A program made the translations under genes and the position numbers. Below, piece after piece: positions 5,160 through 19,229 of a stretch of 64,000 bases of DNA; positions within the stretch are counted from its first letter, which is position 1, and each line of letters opens with the position of its first letter. Below the pieces are notes generated by a model. That model worked only from the letters and a program-made list of their open reading frames with translations. It had not been told where the DNA came from and ran no database searches. This stretch comes from Psilocybe cubensis. Lineage: Eukaryota. Where the stretch lies: positions 2,976,001 to 3,040,000 of the forward strand of contig CM039003.1 of NCBI GenBank assembly GCA_017499595.2, written 5' to 3'.

Positions 5160-6558
5160 TTACAGGACGTAGTCAATAAAGTACAGCTGGTCTTCTTCGA
5201 AAGACGTGAAAATGGGAATCCAGAATTTGTCCAGCGGAACAAGCGACTCCTGCGGCGTTTTGTAGTGCCTGAGTTCTTGGAGTAATAACCGGACCCTTTT
5301 CCCCACAGAAAAATGATGGAGAATAAAGGCCATCTTCATAGTTGGAATCACAAATTTTTCTGGGGAATGGAAAAGGCTGCTTCTGGGATCAGTTCCGACC
5401 AGTTGAATGCGGACAGATAGCGTAATTGAGGCTGCTCGCAGCAATCCTGCTCGAAGGGACCTCGCTAAAGCAGAGAATCCATCGTACTGTTTTTCGGTAT
5501 CGTTGGGATCTTCGACATCCTTTAGGCTAAAAGTCACCGATAGTGTAATGCGGTGGAGGGCGGTATGATTCTCGATGTCAAAACATGCGGCAATTTCATG
5601 TAGTTGCTGGTGGTAAACCGGAAGACCATCTAGGAAATTGTCAAATGACAGCCGTTATCCAATGAGGCCGTTACACACCAGTATTTCCTCGCTTGAACCA
5701 TTCGGTCGATATTTCAAGGCTTTCTAGTGTATCCTTGCACCCGTTGATGATTGATTGCATGGTCGCTGTGGTCACTGAAAATTCGGGCAGCGTAGAAATC
5801 CACAAGTCTCTTAAAACAGAGACGTCAATTACTGAATTGAAATCAGGTAGACAGGTTCCAATATCCAGGCTGTTTACCCGAAGCCGTTGATAGAATACAC
5901 CAGAAGGCATCACCATATCTAAGCGGGTGAAAGACAGCTTCTTGAGTCCAGCAGGGCACTGCAACACGAGACATAAGGGAAATATAGCAAATCCACGTGT
6001 ATCAAGATGTGAAAGGTTGAACGGCAGCGATAGAAAGGCCTCGAGTAGGTTAGTTACTGTCCTGGGGTGGAATTGAGTGTGGTGGTACACGTCAGACGCG
6101 GTGCCCTCAAGTTTGGAGAAAGACAGAGTTTCTAGCTTTCGCAAGAGTCGCAGTATTGGTCCCAAAGATAACACATGATGGTGTGGACTTATACATCGAC
6201 CTTCTTCCAGAAACTCTAGTTTCAACGTTCGCACATATGGTCGAAGATGTGGAAAGCGTTGTAGAAAATCAAAAAACCTTAGAGCAGTGCCACCACCTCC
6301 TGCGAGGTCGTGAATAGAGATGAGCGTGGACACCATAGTTGCACAGTTAAGAGGAGAGGTGCTCGCTTCTGAGCAGATTCCGTAGGTTACTGTTACCTCT
6401 CGAAAGAGTATTTCTCTGGAGAGATGATACATGCTGCTGTTGACTAACGACGAGGCATATAGGGTGGATTTCGAATGGTTGGGTTGAAGATGAGAAAGAA
6501 TCTCTCGTAGCAGTTCTGTTGGGAGTGTGAGTGCATGTGCATAGTAGGGGTTGCGCAT
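5160..6558 (-). CDS. F-box/LRR-like protein (paralog of 18173-19229)
   Basis: N-terminal LPTELLREILSHL...LYASSLVNSSMYHLSREILFREVTV; intron 5630-5678 joins the two ORF-track segments in frame. Confidence 0.8.
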
Positions 6559-6913
6559 CGGTTGATGTGGGCAAAGTAAAAGAAAAGATTGGTGTAACTA
6601 GAATAGCCAAAAAACAAGGGCCCTGTTTGCTTTTCAACACAGATCAAACGGTCACGCGTGCTTGGCGCCACTCAGTCGCGGCGCGTCCTTTCGTTACTCG
6701 CAAACTTTCCTGAAGGTTGCGTGAAGGTAATTCAGGTTATGTATTATGATATGGCTAATTTGCATTGATAGAAGTATACAAGAACACTGGGGGATCGTCG
6801 GATACCTGATATTGAAGCATCTTCCTTTATCTTCCCAATCAAACACGTTATCGTACACTGTCTTGAGCACATAATTGACAATAGATTAACAATACAGTGT
6901 CTAAAACAGGTAA

Positions 6914-7704
6914 CTATTCATACTTCCTCATGTTTTCCATGAGAGCTGTCCATCTTCCATCATGCCATGAGATAATCTCTTTCCACTTCTGGCTGTCTTC
7001 ACCGGTAGAAACTCTAAAACACATCAAGAAACCGGCAACCACGACATCAGCCCATGAAAGTTCCTCTCCCATAATAAATGGCCCTTTCCCCGCATTCTTG
7101 GCATACAAGTTGTTAATCTTTTCCAGAACACCTTGAAGCGCAGTCATATGTGCCGAAAGCTGGTCATCAGGCACGAGGTCTTCCAATTTCTTGCCGACCT
7201 TGGCCTCCATATCGTCACGAAAATATTGAATACTGGGTGGACGCAGACAAACGAAGATCGTCCAGATGAGAAGCTCGCGAGCGGGCGGTATGTATGACAT
7301 GAAGGCCTCTGTAAATGTCTGTGCGAGGCCAATCGTATTATGTGGGAATATTTGTGGGGTATCGGAGTACTGTTGATCGAGGTACTCGGCAATGGCCATG
7401 GAATCGTAGATCGACTTGTTTGTGAGGGGGTCGTAAATTACTGGAACCGTGTAGTGTGGGCTTCCGTTTGCCTTCATAGCTTTTGGGACAATACCCAATT
7501 TCGCGTACAGGCTCTCCAAGTGGGGGAACTCCACCCACTCTGTAATAAAAGGCAGCCCTTTGTAATTAAGACAGTACCTATGATGTTGCATCAGTATCAG
7601 AATAATAAAAAATACAACTCTAACTCTAACCTTGTTCTCCAGGTGTTCAAGGACATGGAATATCCAGGGGAAGTGGATGGCACGTCGTAAAGAACAATGT
7701 TCAT
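6914..7704 (-). CDS. Glutathione S-transferase, fungal-specific GSTFuA/etherase-like class
   Basis: Exon 1 MNIVLYDVPSTSPGYSMSLNTWRTR, 53-nt intron 7578-7630, then YCLNYKGLPF...WVEFP...YTVPVIYD...DSMAIAEYLD...GPFIMGEELSWAD...WHDGRW. Confidence 0.9.
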
Positions 7705-8858
7705 GATCAAATACGGGTTGCGATTAACAGAGTTGTAAATCTCCACTGCAACATTCTTTCAGACTCTTATACGTTTTGACTGAGGTGATATTGAATTATG
7801 CGATAGCTTGTCAAACAAAAGGTTAACCATCTATAGTTTAGTTTACTTAAATCATTATGCTATGGGCCCGGCGCGATTGCTTTGATGTCATTACAAGAGT
7901 TAGATATACGTTTGTCACAAGAACTGCTTTTTCCCTTCTTAACTGATCTACCCATGCTGTAGATTTTGACATCTCGCACTGAGTGATTTTATATTCCAAA
8001 AAGCATGTTTACCCTCTTTCCAATCTTCTTAGATTTAGGAAAGCGATACACGCATATGGCGTAATTTCCAGTGGCGTGCGGCCGTCTATACCAACACTGC
8101 GTGCGGGTTCAGAAGTTTCGAGATCGGCAAGCAAGCTGTTCCTCCAAACAAAAAAATATTTGTTGTCAAACGGGGACTCATTAACTGCTATCATCAGTTT
8201 CAGTTCCCTTCTAGATCACCGCCGTAACTGGCCGTCTGTGTGCTATTGTACGCGCAATCTGCCATTACTAAATTTTTGAAAATGCTCACATTAACGCCTT
8301 TAAAACTTAAGAAAGAAGAAAATCGATTAAACGGCTGATATACGATGTCTGTACGGAAGATACAATTACCAACGACATTTTGAGTCATCCTCGTGGCTGA
8401 ACAGGACCAGTGAAAACCCCTATCCAGCCCCTAACCAAGCGATATCTGTGCACGTGACGACATTGACGAGGCAAATGCCGGATCGGGATCGGGGCACAAA
8501 CAGTCCCGATAAGGAAGTTCGTCCTGCACTTGTGGGAATGAGTCATGGGCGGCTCCGGTGAGTATATAAGACACACCGGCCCAACATGCGGCCACTCCTG
8601 ACTCCCCCTGCATTTCAACCCTCCTTTCCCCCTCCTTTATCTGCGCTACAGCCTAAACTCTTCGATAATGAGAGAAACCTATCTTTTCTGCTATTTTTCT
8701 TGTGCATTCTCATAGTCACTTAGCTGTATCAACTCAGTGTCGCGTTGGTGGAGCATCTCTTGATCTTACGGGCGGAGGACCGAGTTTATTTTCCATCAGG
8801 AGTCGGTTTGGCACCATAGCCTCTCGCGCCGACTGCCGTGGCATGGAATAATTCCAAG

Positions 8859-10948
8859 ATGCCAACACGAACCTCTTTCTCCCAATCATTTAGATCGGCA
8901 CAACTTGCTCCTTATCTCACTGGCAACTTTGACTCAAAAACTCCTTTTGAAATCGGTGGACCCTGGCCTGATCGAAACCTGTCGTCAATTATGCCCTCGC
9001 TGCCGGTCTTTTCTTAAACTAATGTCAACTCTCTTCAATTTTACCTTTCCGTTTCAATCGTCACCGACTTGTTAATCATACCGGCGGTACTTGTGCTAGA
9101 AGTCATAAGCGCTATCGGTTCGATAAAGGTTTCGACAATTCATTTGTAGGGTTTCAGCTTCTCCGGATAGGGATCCTTTCCATAAACAAAATATATGCGC
9201 CTTTCGTCGACGCCAGGGTTCTTTCCCAACAACCTAATCTATGTTCGAAAATAGACCTCGTCCGTGGTTTTACTCCGAAAATAACATCTTGGATATATTC
9301 TCCCATGTTTTCGCTGGCTCCTGACACTCCTTGTCGACCCTGGATGCTATTCGAAAATAGCGTTTATCAACGTTCATTTGTTCTGGGACATCATCTTTGG
9401 CTCAAACCCTTTCGTTGTAATCTGGAAAGGCGCATTTTCTCCTACGCTATTCGCCTCAGTGCTCCGGGTTTCAAAGTGGTGTTCCCCATGCACTTACATC
9501 TTAATTCTTCGGGAATCAAGCTTTCAGCCGCCGGTTTGGTTTTAATATTCCTCGCTGTCCAGCTATATCAGCGTCTACTGGTGATCACTCTCTAACCGTT
9601 CGTCTCCAATGGTACTCGGAAAATCTTCAATTGCTTTACTTGAAGCAACTTCGCAATTTCTTCGTCTCGCGACAAGCGCGGAACAAACTTGTCGAACAAT
9701 GGTGTGCTATCGTTATCAAGAGATGGTTAACCATTCCAAAAACAATCAAAGCAATTCAGGGTTACTGGGTACGTCTCTGTTCTCACTTTTTTGTCTATAT
9801 AGGAATCAGGGTTGGATTTACCATCTATTCATTTCGCCATCCATCTATCTACGATGATTTTGGACTTCTAAATCTAATCGCCTACATCGAGAGAAAGGTA
9901 TGCTCCTTTTGTATAATTTGCCTTTTATAACATACATCTCATACTTTGGGCAATAAGATCGGTACATACGTACTGTGATCGTCGCGGCCCTGAATTATTC
10001 AAGTTGTTTTCCTCCCTTGTTGATGGATCCTCTAATCTTTACGTCCCGAGCTATTAGGAGAACTCGGTCCGACCTGTAATTGGCCAACACGCCTACCCAC
10101 CTACCCATCACCCGCTCCTCTGGACCGTCTCCCAATCCATTCATTCACTTTCATCAATTGTCGTATCATTCCCAGTCTGAGGTCCTGAAGAACGCACCAT
10201 TGCCCCCGTTTTTTGGGCCCTCATTCGCTGCGATTGGCTGGGGATTGTAAGGCTCCTTTCTCGTCGCAGCTCGTAGTAGGGATCGTGCTTAGGCATAAAA
10301 ATATGCTCTCGTTCGGTACTGTCCGTTGGTCAGCAGGTCATTCGGAAGCTCTGTTTCATTTTCTCTTCTCGAGCTTGATCTAGGGACGCAGAGGCTTACG
10401 AGTTCAGTGACTATATGTGCTTTATGGATGTCTCTCCGTTGTGCTGGTGTTTTCCTCAATTGTGCGCCGACTTTGCACCGTGACTATCGAGCCTGGACAG
10501 TGGCTGCTCGTGACTACTCGTTCTGAGATTGCACTCGTGACTCTCTTTCTGTGATGGTGATTATCAACTCCTGGTCTCGTCGGCGAGACAAAACGCGAAA
10601 CACGGAAACGCAGGAAACTAACATCTGCACGCACTCGAGTACGAAAACCTATTATGCAACGGGACAAGGGACAAGGGTGAACTCTTTGGCTGTCGGTTTT
10701 ACAGGCATCTCAGGCTTCATAATCAAAAGAGACTGACTACTGCAACCACTCTGGGGAGGCACCTGGGTTACCGTCATGGAATTGAATTGTCACTCTGGGG
10801 AATGTCTGCTTGCATATACATCGGAATTTGGATTACAGAAGAACAGGCTGTACGGCGCAGCCTCGACACAAACTCTTATCTTTTCACCCTTGATTATTAT
10901 CTGTTGGGCACTACAGCTTTTAACTTTGTGCTAGGTCTGTACCGCTGA
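8859..10948 (+). pseudogene. Decayed multi-exon gene of unknown family
   Basis: TATATAAG at 8563 followed by a pyrimidine-rich tract; long reading frames (9241-9897, 10562-10948) interrupted by isolated TAA/TAG/TGA; plausible introns (GTACTT...TTTGTAG ~9087-9149, GTATGC at 9898). Confidence 0.35.
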
Positions 10949-12711
10949 GATAGGGGTATTCAAGGAGTGCCATTTGAGCAGCGGTCGCAGTCGGTACGGC
11001 GCGTTTACCGTGGTTCCGTAGATTGGGCAACTCTATATACGCGATACGCAGCAATCCGGCCGATGTTGTTTGTCAGCTTCGTATCTATGCATGTCAGCGT
11101 CAGCGCCAGTGCTGCACTGAGCAGAAATCTTTCAACTGGGGCCCTGTGCTTTGACTGAGCAGCTTTGCTTTTCGGATCTGGAGCACACCGCGCTGCTATC
11201 GCCTTGACTGCGGAGGACGTGGACGTGGACGTGGACGGAGCGCAAGTGCTGAGTGCAGCGCAACAGTCTACCTTTTCAGTGTATCTGTGGAGTACCCCGC
11301 CACCCACGACACGACGGCATCCACGTATGAACACATGACATATGCGGCTCCTGTGGACGGCTGAGCACAGGCCATGTGCATTTCAATGGTACACGATCAT
11401 TCCAGTGTCAAGCGGTCGATGTCGACTTGCTGCGTAATGTCCGGCATGAAGTGCACAGCACTTCCAGAATATACACAGAGAGACTTCTAGTTGGGGGGAA
11501 ACAATGGAATGGAATGGTGCTGTGCAAAGCTTGATAGTGCTTTATGATAAAAAGGAGGGTACCTCGTGATGAACATTTAGACGCCAGCGCCTGCAAAGGG
11601 ATTCTCGCGATGAACAAGGAGATTAATTGGCGCGCGTATTTAATGAAAGTGCGCAGATATCGATGCTTGAAGAGGAACTCACGGCTTATGAACTGAAAGA
11701 GGACCGGTAATGGTATGGCTGTGTAGCGAATGTGTTGGAAGCTGTGAACAACGCCGAGAAGCGCTCGTAACTCTTGTCGACGCCGGTGTGGAGAGTGCGA
11801 GGGGTAATATATTAAAGATGCCTATTCTTATCGACGACCATTGGTAAGGATGAGAAAGCAGCACGTCTCCGCGAGAGTGCAACACCCGAAATATCGGATC
11901 AGGCGACGAGCACAAGACGTCATACGCATGCAACCCAAGTATGGGCGTCCAATAACATCGCGGAAAGGCCGAAGAAAACTCTGAACAGAACAATGGGCCG
12001 TCGGGGGCATAAATCCGTTGACAAATGACACTGAGTAAGAGTAACCACTGGGGAGGTTGAGGTTGATTATCGCTGGCTTGAGCTCCTATTCGAGTGCAAT
12101 TTTGCCGCCCGGCGCCCATTGAGGAGGACGGGGAATGTTTTCCGATTTCACGGGATATCATCGGTAATGTTACCGATGCCCTACGCCCATGGACGAGGTA
12201 GATTGACAGGGAAGAGGTACGGACTTGCCGCATTTGTCGACGCCGAACTCATAAGAAGGCGGGAAGCGCGCCTCGTGTGATGGGCGGGGGTCAGGTGGGC
12301 GCTGGGCGGAGGGCATGGGGCTGTGTTGGGCGCCCTTCGGGGGGCGGGGTGTGCCTAAAAGGGTTAGACGTCGGGTTGCCCATCAAATGCCTTCCATGTG
12401 AACGCCGTGAATAGCGGGGATGAATGTGTCATCTGTACAGCATGGTTACAGGGACCGATATGACTCGGTCTGAGAAACGGTGGGTCATACACAGAAAAAA
12501 GAGAGAAAAAACACGAATTTTGAGGGAGATTGGGGATGGAAATGTGGGCGTTGGAGACTGCGAACTGCGCTGGGCAGACGGGACAAGTAGGTGGAAGCTT
12601 TAGCGCAGCTGGGTGAAGGGTTATGCAGACGGATTAGAATGATGGGCGGGGAGATTTGTCAGGGCGGCACCGCACTTTGGCTGAGTCTGAAAAAAAAAGC
12701 TGTGCCGGGTG

Positions 12712-12718
12712 TATATAA
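12712..12718 (+). promoter_or_regulatory. TATA box of the bZIP gene
   Basis: TATATAA followed about 30 nt later by a CT-rich tract. Confidence 0.65.
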
Positions 12719-12841
12719 GCCGGATCGAGTCAGGACGATGGTTAGCCCGTTCTTTCTTCCCCAACCCCCATCTCGACTTGGCCGGAGTCACATCTCTGTC
12801 CAGTCCCCCCTAGCCCTCCTCAGCACACCACTGAGGCATTT

Positions 12842-13199
12842 GTGAGTCACAGTTTCCTCTCCAAATCTGATACTTTGGCCTACGTGTGCAATTGCCTTGT
12901 GCCACAGCGATAACTCGCTTATTGTATCATACACGTATACGCACTTTCGAGTCAGAAATGCAAATGGCTTGTGCATCTGCGACTTCCATGTCCGCGAACG
13001 AGTCGGCCGTGAGCACGTCTCCGGCGACAGCGTTGAACAAGGCTTATCAGATGGAGGTGGACCCCCGCGAATCCCCCGCGCGGGAGGCTCAGCTCTCCTT
13101 ACCTGCACAGGGCGCCCATGAATTATCCTCTTCCTCCGGGCGCACATCAGGGCCAAGCAATGATCATTTGGACAAGGAACTGATACCATCCACATCTAG
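12842..13199 (+). other. Predicted 358-nt 5' leader intron of the GCN4-like gene
   Basis: Donor GTGAGT at 12842, branch-like CTGAT at 13180-13184, acceptor CTAG ending 13199. Confidence 0.6.
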
Positions 13200-13309
13200 G
13201 CTTTCAAGGCTACCGTCCGAGGTGCCTTCGCCCAATACATTGACCAGTAACCCACACCCCGTCGCAATTCCGGTCCACCAGAACAACCTCACTACATACA
13301 CAAGTCAAG

Positions 13310-13327
13310 ATGTTCACCTCTTTGTGA
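13310..13327 (+). promoter_or_regulatory. uORF1 (MFTSL*)
   Basis: aagATG TTC ACC TCT TTG TGA, -3 A context, out of frame with the bZIP ORF; first AUG after the predicted leader intron. Confidence 0.7.
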
Positions 13328-13432
13328 ATAACTCGGCTTCTTCCACCTCGTCTACGGTTACTCGTACCTCTGGTCAACAGTCAACTCCACCCGAAACATC
13401 TGTTTCGAGTTTTTCTCAACCCCTCCATCACC

Positions 13433-13441
13433 ATGTCCTAA
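13433..13441 (+). promoter_or_regulatory. uORF2 (MS*)
   Basis: accATG TCC TAA, -3 A context, out of frame. Confidence 0.65.
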
Positions 13442-13510
13442 CTCACCCAATTCGTCGTCCTCGGACGTCTAGTACCATCTTCCAATCCTCCACGGATTTA
13501 GCAGCACATT

Positions 13511-13600
13511 ATGGAATCCCCCAGATACTGCCACCAGCACCACGCCCAACACCGCGCAATACAGCTCCAGTCTACCAGCAACCAAGCACTGATTCTATGA
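13511..13600 (+). promoter_or_regulatory. uORF3 (29 aa) overlapping the main AUG (ATGA overlap)
   Basis: attATG GAA TCC CCC...CTA TGA; its stop (13598-13600) overlaps the in-frame ATG at 13597. Confidence 0.65.
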
Positions 13601-14694
13601 TCAAATCTTATCTTAACATGCTTTACAACAAGCCGACAGAAACACCAGAAGTCGCCCCCAGCGCACCACCAATGTCTGCGTCTACATCCACGTCGTCCAC
13701 GTCTGCGGCGGGGCTTGACGCTCCCGTTGAGTTCATCACTCAAGATCAGCTCAATGATATCGCCGCGATCATCGGTAAGGATACTGCTTCGTGCTATGGA
13801 ATCACGGTGACTCATCTCTTCGGTTCCGTCTTCGCAGCGTCTTCTCCTGAGTTCCGCGACCAGGACACCTTCGACGCCTTTATGTCTACCTCCCCACTCC
13901 TGCCTGAGCTCGACTATGGCAGCTCGCCCTCCTTCGATACTCCTTACAACGAGTTCCTCACCACCCCACTCTTCCAGGACGAGAACGTCCCTGTCATGGA
14001 CGACTTTATGAACGAGCCTTTGTTCCCTATGTTGGAAGAGCCTGAGGTTTCGATTCAGTCGAAGGCCGTCGAGACTTTCGTGCCCACTCTCCAGCAGGAA
14101 CTCTACTCTATTTCGCCGTCGGCGACCCCCATCACTCCAGCCCTCCATTCCTTCGACACCTTCGAGACGGTTCCCATCTTCGAACCGAGTAGCGTGGCTA
14201 CTACTCTCCCTGTCACCGTCCCCGCTCAACCTCCTGTCGCACCCAGCCATCCTGCGCCTCGTCGCTCTAAGGCCACTGGCATCCGCAAGGGCGTCACTCC
14301 CGACAGCCTGCTCGACGAGTCCGCGCCGACGCAGCCGCGCAAGTACACGACGCCCTCTGCGACATCGCGCAAGGAGCTCCCGGCCGTGTTCGCGCGCAAG
14401 CGCTCGCGGTCGACGGCATTCGGGGAGGAGGAGGATCAGCTTGAGGAGATCCCGCCCGACGCGACCGAGGCGCAGTTGATCGAGATCAAGCGCAGGCAAA
14501 ATACGGTTGCTGCGCGCCGCAGCCGCAAGCGCAAGCTGGAGCAGTTCCAGAAGCTGGAGAACTCGCGCAACGAAGAGAGGCGGCTGAAGGAGCAGTGGAA
14601 GGAGCGCGCCAACGTGCTCTTGGGCATGCTCCGCAGCAAGGGCGTCAAGCATCCCGACTTCCCAGAGGATGTTCTTGAATATGCTGATGCGTAA
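13597..14694 (+). CDS. cpcA: GCN4/CpcA (cross-pathway control)-type bZIP transcription factor; AUG start at 13597 or 13618, with possible N-terminal extensions
   Basis: Basic region KRRQNTVAARRSRKRKLEQFQKLE matches the GCN4-family NTxAARRSRxRK signature; acidic/aromatic activation region; 63-nt intron 13775-13837; uORF-bearing leader. Confidence 0.85.
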   Translation: MIKSYLNMLYNKPTETPEVAPSAPPMSASTSTSSTSAAGLDAPVEFITQDQLNDIAAIIGKDTASCYGITVTHLFGSVFAASSPEFRDQDTFDAFMSTSPLLPELDYGSSPSFDTPYNEFLTTPLFQDENVPVMDDFMNEPLFPMLEEPEVSIQSKAVETFVPTLQQELYSISPSATPITPALHSFDTFETVPIFEPSSVATTLPVTVPAQPPVAPSHPAPRRSKATGIRKGVTPDSLLDESAPTQPRKYTTPSATSRKELPAVFARKRSRSTAFGEEEDQLEEIPPDATEAQLIEIKRRQNTVAARRSRKRKLEQFQKLENSRNEERRLKEQWKERANVLLGMLRSKGVKHPDFPEDVLEYADA

Positions 14695-16620: not shown

Positions 16621-18172
16621 GCAGCCACCTCGATAGTAACGAGATGTAGCGCGTTTACAACGCGTCCACGTCCGATCATCATGTGATGAGAACATCCAGT
16701 ATTCCTGGTTTCCCCAGTTTTCCCAAACCCCAGGCGAATCCCAACACAACTACACAAAAACCAAAACGCGGCCCTATGGACGTCGAGGGGAAGAGGACCA
16801 TGTAAACTCAAACCATCGGGATATGAGACTCGTAAGGGAATCTGCGGTTTTCGTAGATGGAACAAGGTGAGGTGGAAACCCCCCATCTCCCTAGATCAGT
16901 GAGTTTTTTTTTTATTGATTCATTGATTGGTTATGATTTATATTTTTTGAGCGTCTGTGTTGAATATGAAGTCGGACAACGGTCATTAAGAGTATTCTCT
17001 GAATAGGGCGTGGACGTAGGAAGAAGAAGGGACACAGAATTCTGCAGTGATGGGCCTCTGGTGTCTTAACGCTGTATCGATAACTCTACGGTTCTCGTCT
17101 TGGAGTTAGACCTGGAAATCCTGTTTGCAGCTGGTCGCCTGCACTTCTCGCTATGGTCTCTTAGAACCTTCGACGGGCTTCCCGGCAGGGGCGGCCAGAT
17201 GCACTTCTTAGGGGTCAGCGCTCTGCGATCATGGTCTGGCTGGCTCTCTATCTTTCGGGTTTCCGTGCGTGGCTTTAATCGTATACTGTCCTTCTCCAAA
17301 CATGCACTTGACAGCCTGGAGAAATTGTTAAAAAAATGGAAAACGTTCCATTTCCCTTTCTCCTTTTTCGGCTCCTAGATCAAGCTGACACCGATGCTGC
17401 AAACCTGCAAACCCGCCCCTCTCGAAGGAATCCGCCTATAACAAATGTCTAAGACGGATGCTGTCGGTTGGATAGACTTTTCATCGTTTCTTTCTAGGGC
17501 CACAGACGAGTTGTGCCCTGGGAGCTATGGTGATCAAGTGTATTCTTTCGCCCATTCGTTACTAGATACGTTTGTATACAGGCATGATTCCTTCCGTGGC
17601 AGTCAGATTCGATACTCGAGGTGGCTTGGCTTGTGGAAAGAGTTTGAAATCGTAAAGGGTCAGATGCGTGACCGATGCCTTCAAAGTGGTTTCTCTGAGG
17701 GTGGTAGTAACGTGGTTTTTCGATATCTATCTTCGTAAACTAGGACCCGACCTCCATCGTGTGCCTTGAGCTTGGGGGTGCTGGAAGTTTGTGCTGGGGT
17801 CACGTACGTTAGATATGTCCTGCTGGAATACATTCGAGTTTGAGAAGAACTTGGCAAGATCGGCTGGAAGGTTTCATGAGCACATGCTTCCCTAATTTTA
17901 TCGGTAAGCCCTCTTCGCTTTGGTAAACCGATCCTACGTATGCTCACTGAAAAATTCTTACCATTAGTATTGCAATGAAGTAGAGCTGAGTGGATAGAAC
18001 TGTACAATGTTCTTTTGTCAAGCCATTTGCTGACTTTGACGCGGTCACGATTAAAGTGCCACTGAACCTCGACGCGTGACCTGTTGAAAGCCAGTGGACC
18101 GAATCTTTCATTACTTACCACCTACTACTTCCTCATCTTACACTTCCTCGCACTTTCATCTGCATTGTAGCT

Positions 18173-19229
18173 ATGTCCTTCCTCCATTGGCACTGGCCCA
18201 TCTTGCCACTCGAGGTTCTCGGGGAGATTATGGTCCATGTACGCGAAGACCATCAATCCACAGATACTCTACGCGCCTGTGCCCTGGTCAACCGATCAAT
18301 GCGAGAGATCTGCCAGAGGCTTCTCTTCCGCGATATTACCGTTCTATACCACCTCCAAACCGCATCCGAACCCGACATGGCCTTTACAACGCCTACCACG
18401 ATATCGATCTTCGACTTTGACGAATACGAGGGGGGATGCACCACAGGTGCTCGACTGCACGATAACTTCCTCACGCGAGACGGGCTGCCGAGGATTCGTT
18501 CCTTCGTCCAAAAGCTCAGCGTACGGTTCTCGACGGAAGGAAGCGCTATCAGCCATCGCAGACGAACGTTCTCACTCCCTGCCATACTGAAATACTTGGA
18601 CCGCTTGAAAACAATCCAATTCTGCCGTCTCGACGGGATAGGGTCGGATCACTACAACGACATCGAGTTCCATCCAACCACCGTCAAACACTTGCAAGAC
18701 TCGATGCAAGCCCTTCCACCCACCATTACCCATATCGACACGCGCGCGTTCGCGATATTTCCCATTTCGCTGTTGTTGCGAAACGTCTCTTCTTCAGCCA
18801 GGTTGCGCAAATTGAGCTCGATGCGTTTTGATACAGCTATTCCCGCTGGGCTGGTTTACAAACCCCTCAGGGTCGAGCATCTCGAAATCGGAACCTGCCC
18901 TCCGCCCGCCCGACGGGCATTCGAGCTTTCTTCTCTACGACGCCTGACCATTTGGTCAAAACCTGAGTTTCCTATCGAGGTGGACGCCATTATGGCCATC
19001 GTTGAAGGGAGCAGACTCACACTCCAAAGTCTGGAATTAGCAAGATACCGCTGCAAGTCAATGAGCGCAGGTATGTGCGAGGCGCGTACATACCTGTGGC
19101 ACCGATTAATTTGAACCCCTCCGCAACTTTACAGAGTTGGTCACCCAGCTGGACTTGCTTGTTACCTCGTTGGTTGCATGCGAAGTTCCAACTTTCAAAA
19201 TAAGAAGTCTTACGGACGATGAAAACTGA
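18173..19229 (+). CDS. F-box/LRR-like protein, C-terminally truncated relative to its paralog (possible pseudogene)
   Basis: LPLEVLGEIM...LRACALVNRSMREICQRLLFRDITV; shares HIDTRAFAIFP, LEIGTC and KPEF blocks with 5160-6558; intron 19071-19134 at the equivalent position; exon 2 only about 31 codons. Confidence 0.72.

Follow-up and report, generated by a model that had tools for sequence, protein, structure and literature searches.

A candidate long leader intron that may also encode the start of a longer protein in the cpc-1/GCN4 gene of Psilocybe cubensis

Introduction

Translational control through upstream open reading frames (uORFs) represents the textbook property of the GCN4, cpc-1 and ATF4 genes. 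The leader of a gene of this family in the mushroom Psilocybe cubensis raises the question of whether a decision taken before translation is added to this paradigm. The original prediction was that a 358-nt leader intron might act as a switch: its removal would leave a uORF-controlled mRNA, while its retention would supply start codons in frame with the bZIP protein and yield a constitutive long isoform. If true, this would place a pre-translational choice on top of the uORF mechanism and account for the many mushroom "bZIP proteins" of 500–600 aa, as compared to the ~250–340 aa expected from experiments in other fungi. It would also provide a candidate for a splice choice gated by structure, in a fungus whose introns are otherwise tiny, and warn annotators that long and short models of the cpc-1/GCN4 gene may both be right. 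All coordinates are positions in the analyzed window, a 64,000-nt stretch of P. cubensis DNA (CM039003.1, 2,976,001–3,040,000, forward strand), and the features are collected in Table 1.

Gene identity and leader organization

The locus represents the 5' end of a cpc-1/GCN4 bZIP gene of Agaricales type. Among natural PDB entries, the gene product is best matched by the GCN4 basic regions 2dgc, 1dgc and 1ysa, all weakly (E 0.005–0.02), and the Pfam match of the window's own protein (bZIP_Maf, E 0.0028) falls below the cut-off; the proteins of relatives carry PF07716/PF00170, and the C-terminal bZIP is related to that of GCN4.

According to the sections on Agaricomycete cpc-1 in Ivanov et al. 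(2017, PMC5487733), the leaders of these genes share a plan in which three uORFs are combined with an AUU that is conserved and a frame devoid of stops. There are 3–4 upstream AUGs (uAUGs), uORF1 has 4–7 codons, and the last uORF is much longer and in good context. In-frame stops are absent between uORF1 and the main AUG and for up to 77 nt 5' of uORF1. An extension of ~120 aa starts from one conserved near-cognate codon, the only one, located 31 nt or more 5' of uORF1; in-frame uAUGs are absent from the mRNAs as described in those sections. The window leader follows this plan in its uORF sizes, open frame and near-cognate AUU. The nearest in-frame stop, at 12868, lies 442 nt 5' of uORF1, and the spliced reading has none. 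By position and conservation, AUU 13267, which is 117 codons upstream of the main AUG 13618, fits the single conserved near-cognate start of that description.

The uORF-type leader assumed in the original prediction is well conserved, with all three uAUGs kept ATG-compatible among relatives at the frequencies given in Table 1 and the main AUG present as Met in 115/115. At uORF2 the ATG is kept compatible via varied residue pairs (HV, HG, HD, ND, DV and NV), and such conservation of uAUGs and main AUG through changing amino-acid pairs argues for their use as start codons. The uORF3 stop overlaps an in-frame ATG at 13597, which is not conserved. Further downstream, the gene models of Galerina, Hebeloma, Crassisporium and Crepidotus have a gap exactly where the CDS intron lies. 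For Leptosphaeria, the part of PMC3199737 that concerns cpcA reports an intronless gene, and a Gcn4-like uORF gene of Cryptococcus is merely mentioned in the corresponding part of PMC7049704.

Table 1. Features at the 5' end of the cpc-1/GCN4-type gene (window coordinates).
Feature	Position	Strand	Remarks
TATA-like motif TATATAAG, then C/T-rich tract	12712..12719	+	presumed core promoter
ATG with an optimal context (-3 A, +4 G)	12738..12740	+	bZIP frame after 358-nt splice
Presumed exon 1	12746..12841	+	no ATG; stop-free in the frame fused by the splice to the bZIP
Candidate leader intron, 358 nt	12842..13199	+	GTGAGT...CTGAT-16 nt-AG; end-to-end predicted helix; conserved open frame
Donor GTGAGT, overlapping a perfect TGAGTCA (Gcn4/AP-1-type) site	12842..12849	+	only strong donor in 12740-13320
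5' arm of predicted 37-bp interrupted helix	12842..12889	+	inner part traceable in three other lineages: LWPTCA, PTCAYT, LAYV
Proximal branch-like CTGAT and first AG after it	12867..12907	+	CTGAT 12867-12871; AG 12906-12907; TGA 12868
Four in-frame AUGs (12958, 12964, 12988, 13051)	12958..13053	+	12964 matches relatives' "MA..." start; 13051 in QMEVD
3' arm of predicted helix	13142..13189	+	in codons for GRTSGPSNDHLDKELIP; includes distal branch motif
Distal branch motif CTGAT (A at 13183), pyrimidine-rich spacer, acceptor AG 13198-13199	13180..13199	+	in frame ...ELIPSTS-R
In-frame AUU	13267..13269	+	43 nt 5' of uORF1; Ile in 104/104 relatives
uORF1 (MFTSL + stop, 6 codons including stop)	13310..13327	+	A at -3; ATG-compatible residue pairs in 103/104 relatives
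uORF2 (MS + stop, 3 codons including stop)	13433..13441	+	A at -3; ATG-compatible in 88/104 relatives
uORF3 (29 codons + stop)	13511..13600	+	A at -3, G at +4; ATG-compatible in 103/103 relatives
Main ORF, bZIP at C-terminus	13618..14694	+	TAA 14692-14694; 337 aa without CDS intron
CDS intron, 63 nt	13775..13837	+	in frame, stop-free; contains TGACTCA at 13808

Splice signals of the candidate leader intron

The segment 12842–13199 is most likely a long spliceosomal leader intron. Its ends are GT and AG, its donor agrees with the consensus, and a CTRAY branch motif is found a short distance 5' of the AG: GTGAGT 12842 is the sole strong donor in 12740–13320, and the distal one of the only two CTRAY motifs in this region lies 16 nt before AG 13199. 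A splice from 12841 to 13200 would fuse the only stop-free frame of the presumed exon 1 to the bZIP frame. In relatives, the acceptor region features Leu in 96/96 sequences, followed by Ile (61) or Thr (35), and Arg at the AG codon in 88/90. Leu-(Ile/Thr) can spell CTNAY; the exceptions are P0126 (V-A), P0150 (L-F) and P0139 (F-Q). AGG is a minor Arg codon in the gene (4/31). Peptide traces of the donor stretch in relatives' proteins from three other lineages (F-V-S-H in P0128 and P0119, M-S-H in P0124), which also carry traces of the 5' helix arm, fit a conservation of the sequence 12842–12849, which could also reflect a Gcn4-type binding site, because GTGAGTCA contains a perfect TGAGTCA as well.

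The length of the segment is unusual for the locus. At 358 nt vs. 63 nt for the CDS intron it is 5–6 times the local norm, close to the sixfold excess predicted; a crude survey of the window, restricted to lengths of 43–130 nt, gave 22 candidate introns with a median of 67 nt (range 48–128). Donor 12842 together with AG 12907 would form an alternative 66-nt intron, after the removal of which all AUGs are kept. A search of 12600–13700 against Rfam (E up to 1) returned no match, and thus no known snoRNA or other RNA family; Pfam gave nothing in the antisense ORF 12788–13195, the other-frame ORF 12846–13121 or the 220-aa extension.

The ATG at 12738 is probably located upstream of the transcription start. 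ATGs 12639 and 12642 are also upstream and likewise come into the bZIP frame after the 358-nt splice, and an ORF at 12639–12845 (68 aa) runs in the frame of ATG 12738. With a transcription start 5' of 12738, an in-frame AUG would be present even in the spliced mRNA. The region of the TATA-like motif can be aligned with the N-terminal parts of P0127, P0128, P0119 and P0161.

A conserved open frame with in-frame start codons

The region 12739–13309 contains six ATGs, all of which fall within 12842–13199: 12958, 12964, 12988 and 13051 are in the bZIP frame, and 13118 and 13160 are out of frame. The first of them has the context gaaATGc. Going upstream, the last stop in the bZIP frame is found at 12868, after which the frame is open through to the TAA at 14692; when read in this frame, the candidate intron would also supply the initial ~80 codons of the long isoform. 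The extent of the segment (358 nt, GTGAGT to AG), its four AUGs in the bZIP frame, an in-frame first AUG and a frame free of stops from 12871 are thus as originally predicted. The accompanying claim that the intron holds every AUG between the transcription start and uORF1 is true of all six ATGs counted here, but it rests on a presumed start, with ATG 12738 just upstream.

Across codons 12871–13617 (249 codons) the frame has no stops, vs. 9 and 8 in the other two frames, and such a stop-free frame appeared in 9 of 20,000 dinucleotide-preserving shuffles. For the intron part alone (109 codons) the absence of stops is only modestly rare (519 of 20,000). Codon GC3 values of 0.62, 0.44 and 0.60 upstream vs. 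0.77 downstream do not discriminate coding from non-coding sequence.

An in-frame, AUG-started extension upstream of the acceptor is present in the gene models of 26 of the 27 named relatives, where it comprises 33–95 aligned residues; the original prediction had named an intronic frame that is not conserved as grounds for its refutation, and these models speak against that outcome. Together with the shuffles, they also argue that the open frame is not a product of chance. In models for which the acceptor motif could be located, 27 to ~90 residues separate it from the first Met upstream, with 12 genera clustering at 62–75. Met occupies the 12964 column in 47/62 relatives and the 13051 column in 68/80, and an M-A-S-type N-terminus and the QMEVD motif recur among them. 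The N-terminal 46 aa are ~72% identical to those of Psilocybe cyanescens, with one 2-codon indel. Beyond the nearest genera the identity of the intron-encoded part is ~30%, no better than when the true CDS intron is read through. As a control, the [LMV]-T-H trace of that CDS intron is weaker, since it occurs in only 49/90 read-throughs.

A predicted helix joining the intron ends

Folding of the intron (z = -2.79) predicts 37 pairs between 12842–12889 and 13142–13189. At least 37 end-to-end pairs were reached by none of 395 random 358-nt windows of the same stretch (a maximum of 35), and folding within three larger contexts leaves all 37 pairs in place, with a mean pair probability of 0.83. With its native codons, the 3' arm pairs at -39.4 kcal/mol, whereas synonymous recodings average -19.9 or -22.8 kcal/mol and pair as well in 0/3000 and 2/3000 cases, respectively. 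The arrangement predicted here, with one stretch past the donor complementing another ahead of the branch point, is that of a zipper stem; the controls gave 0/395, 0/1000 and 0–2/3000. The 5' arm pairs equally well with 13020–13070 (-28.0 kcal/mol). Since the donor and a portion of the branch motif are themselves paired in the predicted helix, it could inhibit splicing rather than help it.

Gene models and transcript-like contigs of relatives

One public gene model uses the homologous junction. In KJA20137.1 (P0127, Hypholoma sublateritium, 267-kb scaffold), an exon homologous to 12690–12806 is joined directly to ...LTRVP..., whereas its close relative P0128 reads ...ELIPPTS-R-LSRVP... with ~105 more residues in between. 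The first-exon homology of P0127 is in the predicted frame and has an E of 6e-4 vs. the whole window, the next best match being 1.3. This model may be ab initio, and it has flaws: its CDS starts upstream of the TATA-like motif, 29 aa of leader are missing, and it ends prematurely. Searches with the first 120 aa of P0127 yielded no second exon-joined protein; they gave two matches among longer proteins and, among proteins of near length, P0127 itself and P0128. P0150 (Gloeopeniophorella) was considered as a second exon-joined model and rejected, as its alignment shows a contiguous but divergent protein.

We further considered 16 transcript-like contigs (1465–2200 nt, all without the CDS intron). 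The segment is kept in seven of them, five start no more than ~8 residues after the acceptor, and four start at the main AUG. Three contigs resembling Tricholoma matsutake start 5 residues after the motif; the genome is open for 160 codons further upstream. Where a database protein begins is a matter of the ORF caller used: the pairs P0026/P0075 and P0020/P0072 are identical over their overlaps. Because identical sequences occur with different starts, such positions are not firm evidence.

Proposed explanation and alternatives

We propose, with confidence that is evenly balanced, that 12842–13199 has a dual use, serving as a long spliceosomal leader intron and, when kept in the mRNA, as AUG-started coding sequence for a long protein. 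Donor GTGAGT 12842, branch A 13183 and acceptor AG 13199 would define the removed intron, and the predicted 37-bp helix would draw its ends together and bury the nearer decoy branch site. Removal would leave an AUG-free leader before the three conserved uORFs, and the 337-aa protein would be made from AUG 13618 via GCN4-type reinitiation control. Were the segment kept, by retention or by use of the nearer AG 12907, scanning ribosomes would first meet the in-frame AUGs 12958 and 12964 and produce a conserved protein of ~555 aa (576–578 codons less the 21 of the CDS intron), and on this mRNA the uORFs would be merely internal out-of-frame sequence. Since the intron also encodes the conserved start of the longer protein, splicing may decide between a uORF-controlled and a uORF-free regulator. 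We infer that the intron is spliced in P. cubensis, that both mRNAs coexist and that their ratio is regulated. More tentatively, and as a possibility rather than an expectation, the same two-layer choice could be imposed across Agaricales on this master regulator of amino-acid starvation, with helix-gated splicing directing spliced mRNA to a uORF-gated short CPC1, and unspliced or proximally spliced mRNA to an AUG-initiated long CPC1 that ignores eIF2-alpha.

The interpretation given in the original prediction is partly supported. The splice signals, the predicted helix and the H. sublateritium model favor a real leader intron, and seven transcript-like contigs of relatives keep the segment while lacking the CDS intron; the protein-level data would also fit transcription starting internally, at the acceptor, or splicing to AG 12907.

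An alternative that we consider unlikely involves two promoters and no splice at 13199. Transcription from near 12750 would give the long protein and transcription from near 13190–13215 the uORF-controlled mRNA, with GTGAGTCA being a Gcn4-type autoregulatory site and ELIPSTSRLSRLP simply a conserved peptide. The TGAGTCA at the donor matches such a site perfectly, and the CDS intron holds another TGASTCA copy, which reads TGACTCA on this strand; in addition, a nearby promoter at 8381–8570 has two sites of this type upstream of its TATA box; in the whole window such sites are not enriched (7 found vs. 7.8 expected). Transcript-like ORFs of relatives start within ~8 residues after the motif and never include exon-1 residues, and all searches produced a single exon-joined protein. 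However, exon 1 of the window has no in-frame ATG, GTG or TTG, so an ORF caller applied to a spliced mRNA would also start at or just after the junction. The boundary, moreover, falls on a complete acceptor, made up of branch motif, pyrimidine-rich spacer and AG, and has a consensus donor 358 nt upstream; the predicted helix joins exactly these two sites, the exon-1 frame is open in the fused phase, and the H. sublateritium model uses the junction.

We give little credence to the idea that the long protein is the ordinary product. The only mRNA would then have lost the 66-nt 5'-UTR intron from 12842 to AG 12907 and be translated from 12958/12964, and the uORF-like ATGs would serve leaky-scanning ribosomes only or be relics. 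An intron of 66 nt matches the local norm, the distal site has the same CTGATAC heptamer as the branch-like one at 12867, and the long ORF is found in 26/27 named models and seven transcript-like contigs. Against this, the distance from the proximal motif to AG 12907 is long (37 nt), and the motif is buried in the predicted helix (inner-pair probability 0.89). At least nine transcript-like sequences are devoid of the segment. The uORFs would be unreachable on such an mRNA because six AUGs precede them. Conservation of the main AUG and of the three uAUGs persists across varying amino-acid pairs, which points to their use as start codons, and Agaricomycete cpc-1 mRNAs are described without in-frame uAUGs in the relevant sections of PMC5487733.

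A constitutively removed intron, whose open frame has no protein function, appears similarly improbable. Extensions would arise solely from near-cognates such as AUU 13267, and conservation within the intron would be that of DNA or RNA elements (the helix and binding sites). The cpc-1 sections of PMC5487733 explain an open leader without any AUG, the intron-encoded identity is low beyond close genera, and all three T. matsutake-like transcripts are without the segment. This reading is at odds with the frame that stays open with an ATG in 26/27 named relatives, with first Met positions of models 62–75 residues upstream of the acceptor motif in 12 genera, with the recurrence of the M-A-S-type N-terminus and QMEVD motif, and with the seven transcript-like contigs that have the CDS intron spliced but keep the segment.

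Finally, that the open frame and its AUGs are chance features of a GC-rich leader is very improbable, since the modest rarity of the intron part alone (519/20,000) is outweighed by the 9/20,000 for the whole stretch and by conservation in 26/27 named relatives, which together contradict it.

Comparison with known systems

The dual-use intron proposed here combines kinds of elements that are already known: the cpc-1 N-terminal extension, the frq start-codon intron and the ATF4 leader intron. The cpc-1 extension, in the portion of PMC5487733 describing it, belongs to the same gene family and shares the short uORF1, the long inhibitory last uORF, the far-upstream stop-free frame and the AUU 5' of uORF1, as well as the idea that upstream initiation bypasses the uORFs. 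It differs in its non-AUG starts and, in Agaricomycetes, its ~120-aa length; that portion mentions no in-frame upstream AUG, leader intron or alternative splicing, whereas in the window the frame extends ~100 codons further, to conserved AUGs inside the candidate intron.

By analogy of arrangement, the closest mechanistic precedent in fungi is intron 6 of Neurospora crassa frq. This intron, as summarized in PMC6829141 (citing Colot 2005 and Diernfellner 2005), holds the start codon of the long isoform; splicing shifts initiation to a downstream AUG and the short isoform, and the ratio is regulated. The candidate intron shares this layout of start codons, with AUGs 12958/12964 inside the segment and AUG 13618 downstream. 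Unlike the present gene, frq encodes a clock protein, and, in the same summary, both its isoforms start at AUGs of one ORF, the short form being free of GCN4-type reinitiation control.

ATF4, the functional animal counterpart of GCN4, has a leader intron that is retained in variant V1 and spliced in the uORF-controlled V2, according to the pertinent part of PMC8933703. Retention there leads to an unstable, nuclear-detained mRNA and not to an N-terminally extended protein, and the introns are non-homologous. A splicing layer of this kind is in print for ATF4 (PMC8933703), and our literature search found none for GCN4/cpc-1. In the accessible text of two Ganoderma GCN4 papers (PMC10563202 and PMC10653791) the terms "uORF" and "kDa" are absent, as are "intron" and "isoform" in the former and "western" and "full-length" in the latter.

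The predicted helix resembles the zipper stems of long yeast introns such as that of RPS17B, in which, as outlined in part of Rogic et al. (2008, PMC2536676), a stretch just past the donor pairs with one just ahead of the branch point and shortens the effective distance. In both cases complementary segments lie near the donor and branch point of an unusually long intron. The helix described here differs in being predicted, in covering also the donor and part of the branch motif, and in having coding sequence as its 3' arm. Yeast HAC1 is another stress bZIP mRNA, and its intron exerts translational control and is paired to the 5' leader; that intron is cut by Ire1 and not by the spliceosome, whereas the signals of the candidate intron are spliceosomal.

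Gene identity and leader architecture

The bZIP gene occupies ~12.7 to 14.7 kb of the window on the + strand. A protein search with it returned 227 matches at E ≤ 0.001, and relatives were taken from the best 120 of these 227. Among the matches listed, the closest were "bZIP domain-containing" proteins of Agaricales, led by Psilocybe cyanescens (63% identity) and followed by Galerina, Gymnopilus, Hebeloma, Crepidotus and others; GCN4 structures were the best natural structural match to the basic region, a weak one (E 0.005–0.02). The leader, free of in-frame stops, fits on each point the plan given for 27 Agaricomycete cpc-1 genes by Ivanov et al. 2017 (PMC5487733).

Features of the cpc-1 leader and coding region (window coordinates)
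Feature	Position	Strand	Remarks
In-frame AUU	13267	+	43 nt 5′ of uORF1, 117 codons 5′ of main AUG
uORF1	13310	+	6 codons
Second uORF	13433	+	3 codons
Last uORF	13511	+	30 codons, optimal context
Conserved main AUG	13618	+	Met in 115/115 aligned relatives
CDS intron	13775–13837	+	63 nt, in frame; four spliced gene models lack exactly this stretch

The ATG at 13597 was rejected as the main start, since only 8 aligned relatives have Met there. The uORF3 stop (TGA 13598) overlaps this non-conserved in-frame ATG as ATGA (13597–13600), 18 nt 5′ of the conserved AUG.

Proposed leader switch

The original prediction held that retention of a leader intron at 12842–13199 (the segment) would supply in-frame AUGs and bypass uORF control. 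All its coordinates were reproduced on recheck: the segment is 358 nt long, runs from GT to AG and contains all six ATGs from 12739 to uORF1, four of them, including the first met (12958), in the bZIP frame, which is open from 12871.

From sequence and folding computation we propose a mechanism to which we give an even chance, namely that helix-aided splicing versus retention sets whether short or long CPC1 is made. Transcription would start in a C/T-rich tract 3′ of a TATA-like motif at 12712. Helix-aided removal of 12842–13199 would leave an AUG-free leader with three uORFs, and GCN4-type control would then govern the 337-aa protein made from the spliced mRNA. If the segment were retained, or AG 12907 used, AUGs 12958/12964 would be met first, giving a ~555-aa protein whose synthesis would be independent of reinitiation.

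That the cpc-1 frame extends upstream, conserved and free of stops, and that the uORFs might be bypassed, is already published (PMC5487733). As proposed here, an intron bears the long isoform's AUG in Neurospora frq (PMC6829141) and a leader intron can be retained in ATF4 (PMC8933703). Full-text literature searches turned up no description, for GCN4/cpc-1 genes, of alternative splicing, of an intron in the leader or of upstream AUGs in frame.

Splice signals and junction traces

Between 12740 and 13320 there is one strong donor, GTGAGT at 12842, and two CTRAY motifs, the distal one with its A 16 nt 5′ of AG 13199. Translated in frame, the acceptor region reads ...ELIPSTS-R-LSRLP. The motif's Leu is invariant in 96 relatives and is always followed by Ile (61) or Thr (35), a pattern matching what CTNAY would permit; the AG-containing codon is Arg in 88/90, AGG being a minor Arg codon of this gene (4/31). 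Exon 1 (the presumed sequence 5′ of 12842) has a single stop-free frame, open from 12639, which removal of the 358 nt joins to the bZIP frame. The spliced leader then has no in-frame stop, a property that Ivanov et al. (PMC5487733) report for cpc-1 mRNAs. We regard 12842–13199 as a candidate leader intron. Conservation of the donor stretch, GTGAGTCA, is open to two readings, since a perfect TGAGTCA site lies within it.

A second AGG codon (tca AGg) lies 9 nt 3′ of the acceptor (13198–13208); it encodes the second Arg of SRLSRLP and could serve as an alternative acceptor in frame. Upstream, an open 68-codon frame (12639–12845) contains ATGs 12639, 12642 and 12738, the last with A at −3 and G at +4. 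In unspliced RNA this frame stops at the TGA within the donor (gTGAgt); the 358-nt splice would carry it straight into the bZIP frame. If transcription started 5′ of 12738, the spliced mRNA would itself carry an AUG that is in frame and in optimal context.

The same junction occurs in a public gene model of Hypholoma sublateritium, KJA20137.1 (P0127; 267-kb scaffold). One of its exons is homologous to window 12690–12806 in precisely the frame predicted (E 6e-4 in a comparison with the whole window, the runner-up having 1.3) and is joined directly to ...LTRVPPATVP.... In P0128, a close relative of P0127, the sequence is ...ELIPPTS-R-LSRVPQATVP..., with ~105 extra residues between. Three proteins of other lineages (P0128, P0119, P0124) read through the region 5′ of the long isoform's Met as F-V-S-H (or M-S-H) plus LWPTCA, PTCAYT or LAYV, translations of the donor stretch and the inner 5′ arm of the helix described below. 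By back-reading peptides, we infer that the KJA20137.1 donor lies at the conserved GTGAGT. This model begins 5′ of the TATA-like motif, omits 29 aa of leader, ends early and may be ab initio; further protein searches found no second exon-joined protein. The 29 leader residues missing from P0127 (near its residues ~142–150) include the AAHYGIP block with uAUG3, and the gap could be a second alternative intron removing the inhibitory uORF, or an annotation artefact. Immediately after the CDS-intron position the model ends in a short unrelated tail.

A predicted end-to-end helix

The minimum-energy fold joins 12842–12889 to 13142–13189 by 37 pairs (whole-intron z = −2.79), all of which are kept in three larger contexts with a mean pair probability of 0.83. 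None of 395 random 358-nt windows from the 64-kb window had 37 end-to-end pairs (maximum 35; 11 reached 25). The 3′ arm is coding. With the native codons its pairing to the 5′ arm has an energy of −39.4 kcal/mol; the mean for synonymous recodings was −19.9 kcal/mol (0/3000 as good as native), or −22.8 kcal/mol with weights taken from codon usage in the gene (2/3000). The predicted helix buries the proximal branch-like motif (12867–12871) and brings the donor to within a few nucleotides of the distal branch A (13183), an arrangement that resembles the "zipper stems" described in long yeast introns (PMC2536676). An equally good alternative partner for the 5′ arm (13020–13070) counts against the intron reading, and the helix could hinder splicing because its outer 8 pairs take in the donor together with some of the branch motif.

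Opposite the candidate intron lies a 135-aa antisense ORF (12788–13195, −), for which no Pfam match was found; it probably just reflects how few stops the sense frame has.

Two apparent mRNA classes and the use of the uORF leader

Among the matches listed, 16 proteins lie on contigs of 1465–2200 nt without the CDS intron, which we took as transcript-derived. The segment is kept contiguously in seven (P0023, P0060, P0062, P0065, P0086, P0106, P0118); five start at most ~8 residues after the acceptor (P0067, P0068, P0070, P0071, P0120) and four at the main AUG (P0059, P0061, P0074, P0102). Three further contigs (1556–1834 nt) match the Tricholoma matsutake gene throughout except for the spliced CDS intron and three single-residue differences; they start 5 residues after the motif, although that genome is open 160 codons further 5′. 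Because contigs occur both with and without the segment, the group seems to make mature mRNAs of both kinds, which differ at a boundary that coincides with the predicted acceptor, although the contig starts are soft evidence, as identical sequences carry different called starts. An internal transcription start at the acceptor would explain this boundary equally well as splicing, and we consider it a rather unlikely alternative.

The uORF starts are widely kept: uAUG1 is ATG-compatible in 103/104 relatives (residue pairs DV/NV/DG/NA), uAUG2 in 88/104 (HV/HG/HD/ND/DV/NV) and uAUG3 in 103/103 (YG/HG). The pairs vary, yet always spell xAT-Gxx; the segment's two out-of-frame ATGs are not conserved (2/9 and 20/92 relatives). 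Preservation of the uAUGs through changing residue pairs points to a uORF leader in use: some mRNA evidently has it as its leader, and must be without the six upstream AUGs. This argues against an mRNA that makes the long protein only and loses just a 66-nt UTR intron, which we judge improbable, even though the nearer AG 12907 would give an intron of that ordinary size and counts against the 358-nt one.

Conservation of the open frame

On the test that the original prediction had set for itself, the frame is conserved: among the matches listed, 26 of 27 organism-named relatives have long models, with 33–95 aligned residues 5′ of the proposed acceptor, and Cyclocybe aegerita alone is annotated from the main AUG. 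These extensions are predicted models, not proteins. Where the acceptor motif is locatable, their first Met lies 27 to ~90 residues 5′ of it, with twelve genera clustering at 62–75, and many N-termini are M-A-S-like. The first 46 residues are ~72% identical to P. cyanescens with one 2-codon indel, and the QMEVD motif (AUG 13051) is widespread among relatives. Beyond the nearest genera, the intron-encoded part is ~30% identical, no better than read-through of the true CDS intron. Such low identity would suit constitutive splicing with a functionless open frame; the AUG-started extension in nearly all named models speaks against that reading, to which we assign a small probability.

Over the 249 codons 5′ of AUG 13618, the bZIP frame has no stops versus 9 and 8 in the other two, and only 9/20000 dinucleotide shuffles were equally stop-free (519/20000 for the intron part alone), so the open frame is not chance. 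Given also its retention in the named models, a fortuitous opening is scarcely credible.

TGASTCA sites and neighbouring genes

Retention of the 63-nt CDS intron, which is in frame and free of stops, would lengthen the protein by 21 residues and leave it intact. The ORFs of 90 relatives read through this intron, with (L/M/V)-T-H in 49/90, fitting nTGACnCA. The intron contains a perfect TGACTCA at 13808, which may be an intragenic autoregulatory site or merely the branch point. Two TGAGTCA sites (8381, 8539) lie in 8381–8570 (+), just 5′ of TATATAAG (~8565) and a C/T-rich tract, and a further TGASTCA copy, TGACTCA on the + strand, is at 8930; this arrangement suggests that 8381–8570 (+) is a promoter responsive to CPC1/Gcn4 that serves a + strand gene. 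No long ORF was found in the 3 kb 5′ of the bZIP gene. The neighbouring ORFs (6914–7723, −; 5671–6597, −; 18080–19114, +) comprise a glutathione S-transferase (GST_C_7, E 3e-37) and two whose F-box-like similarity is weak and falls under the Pfam cut-off.
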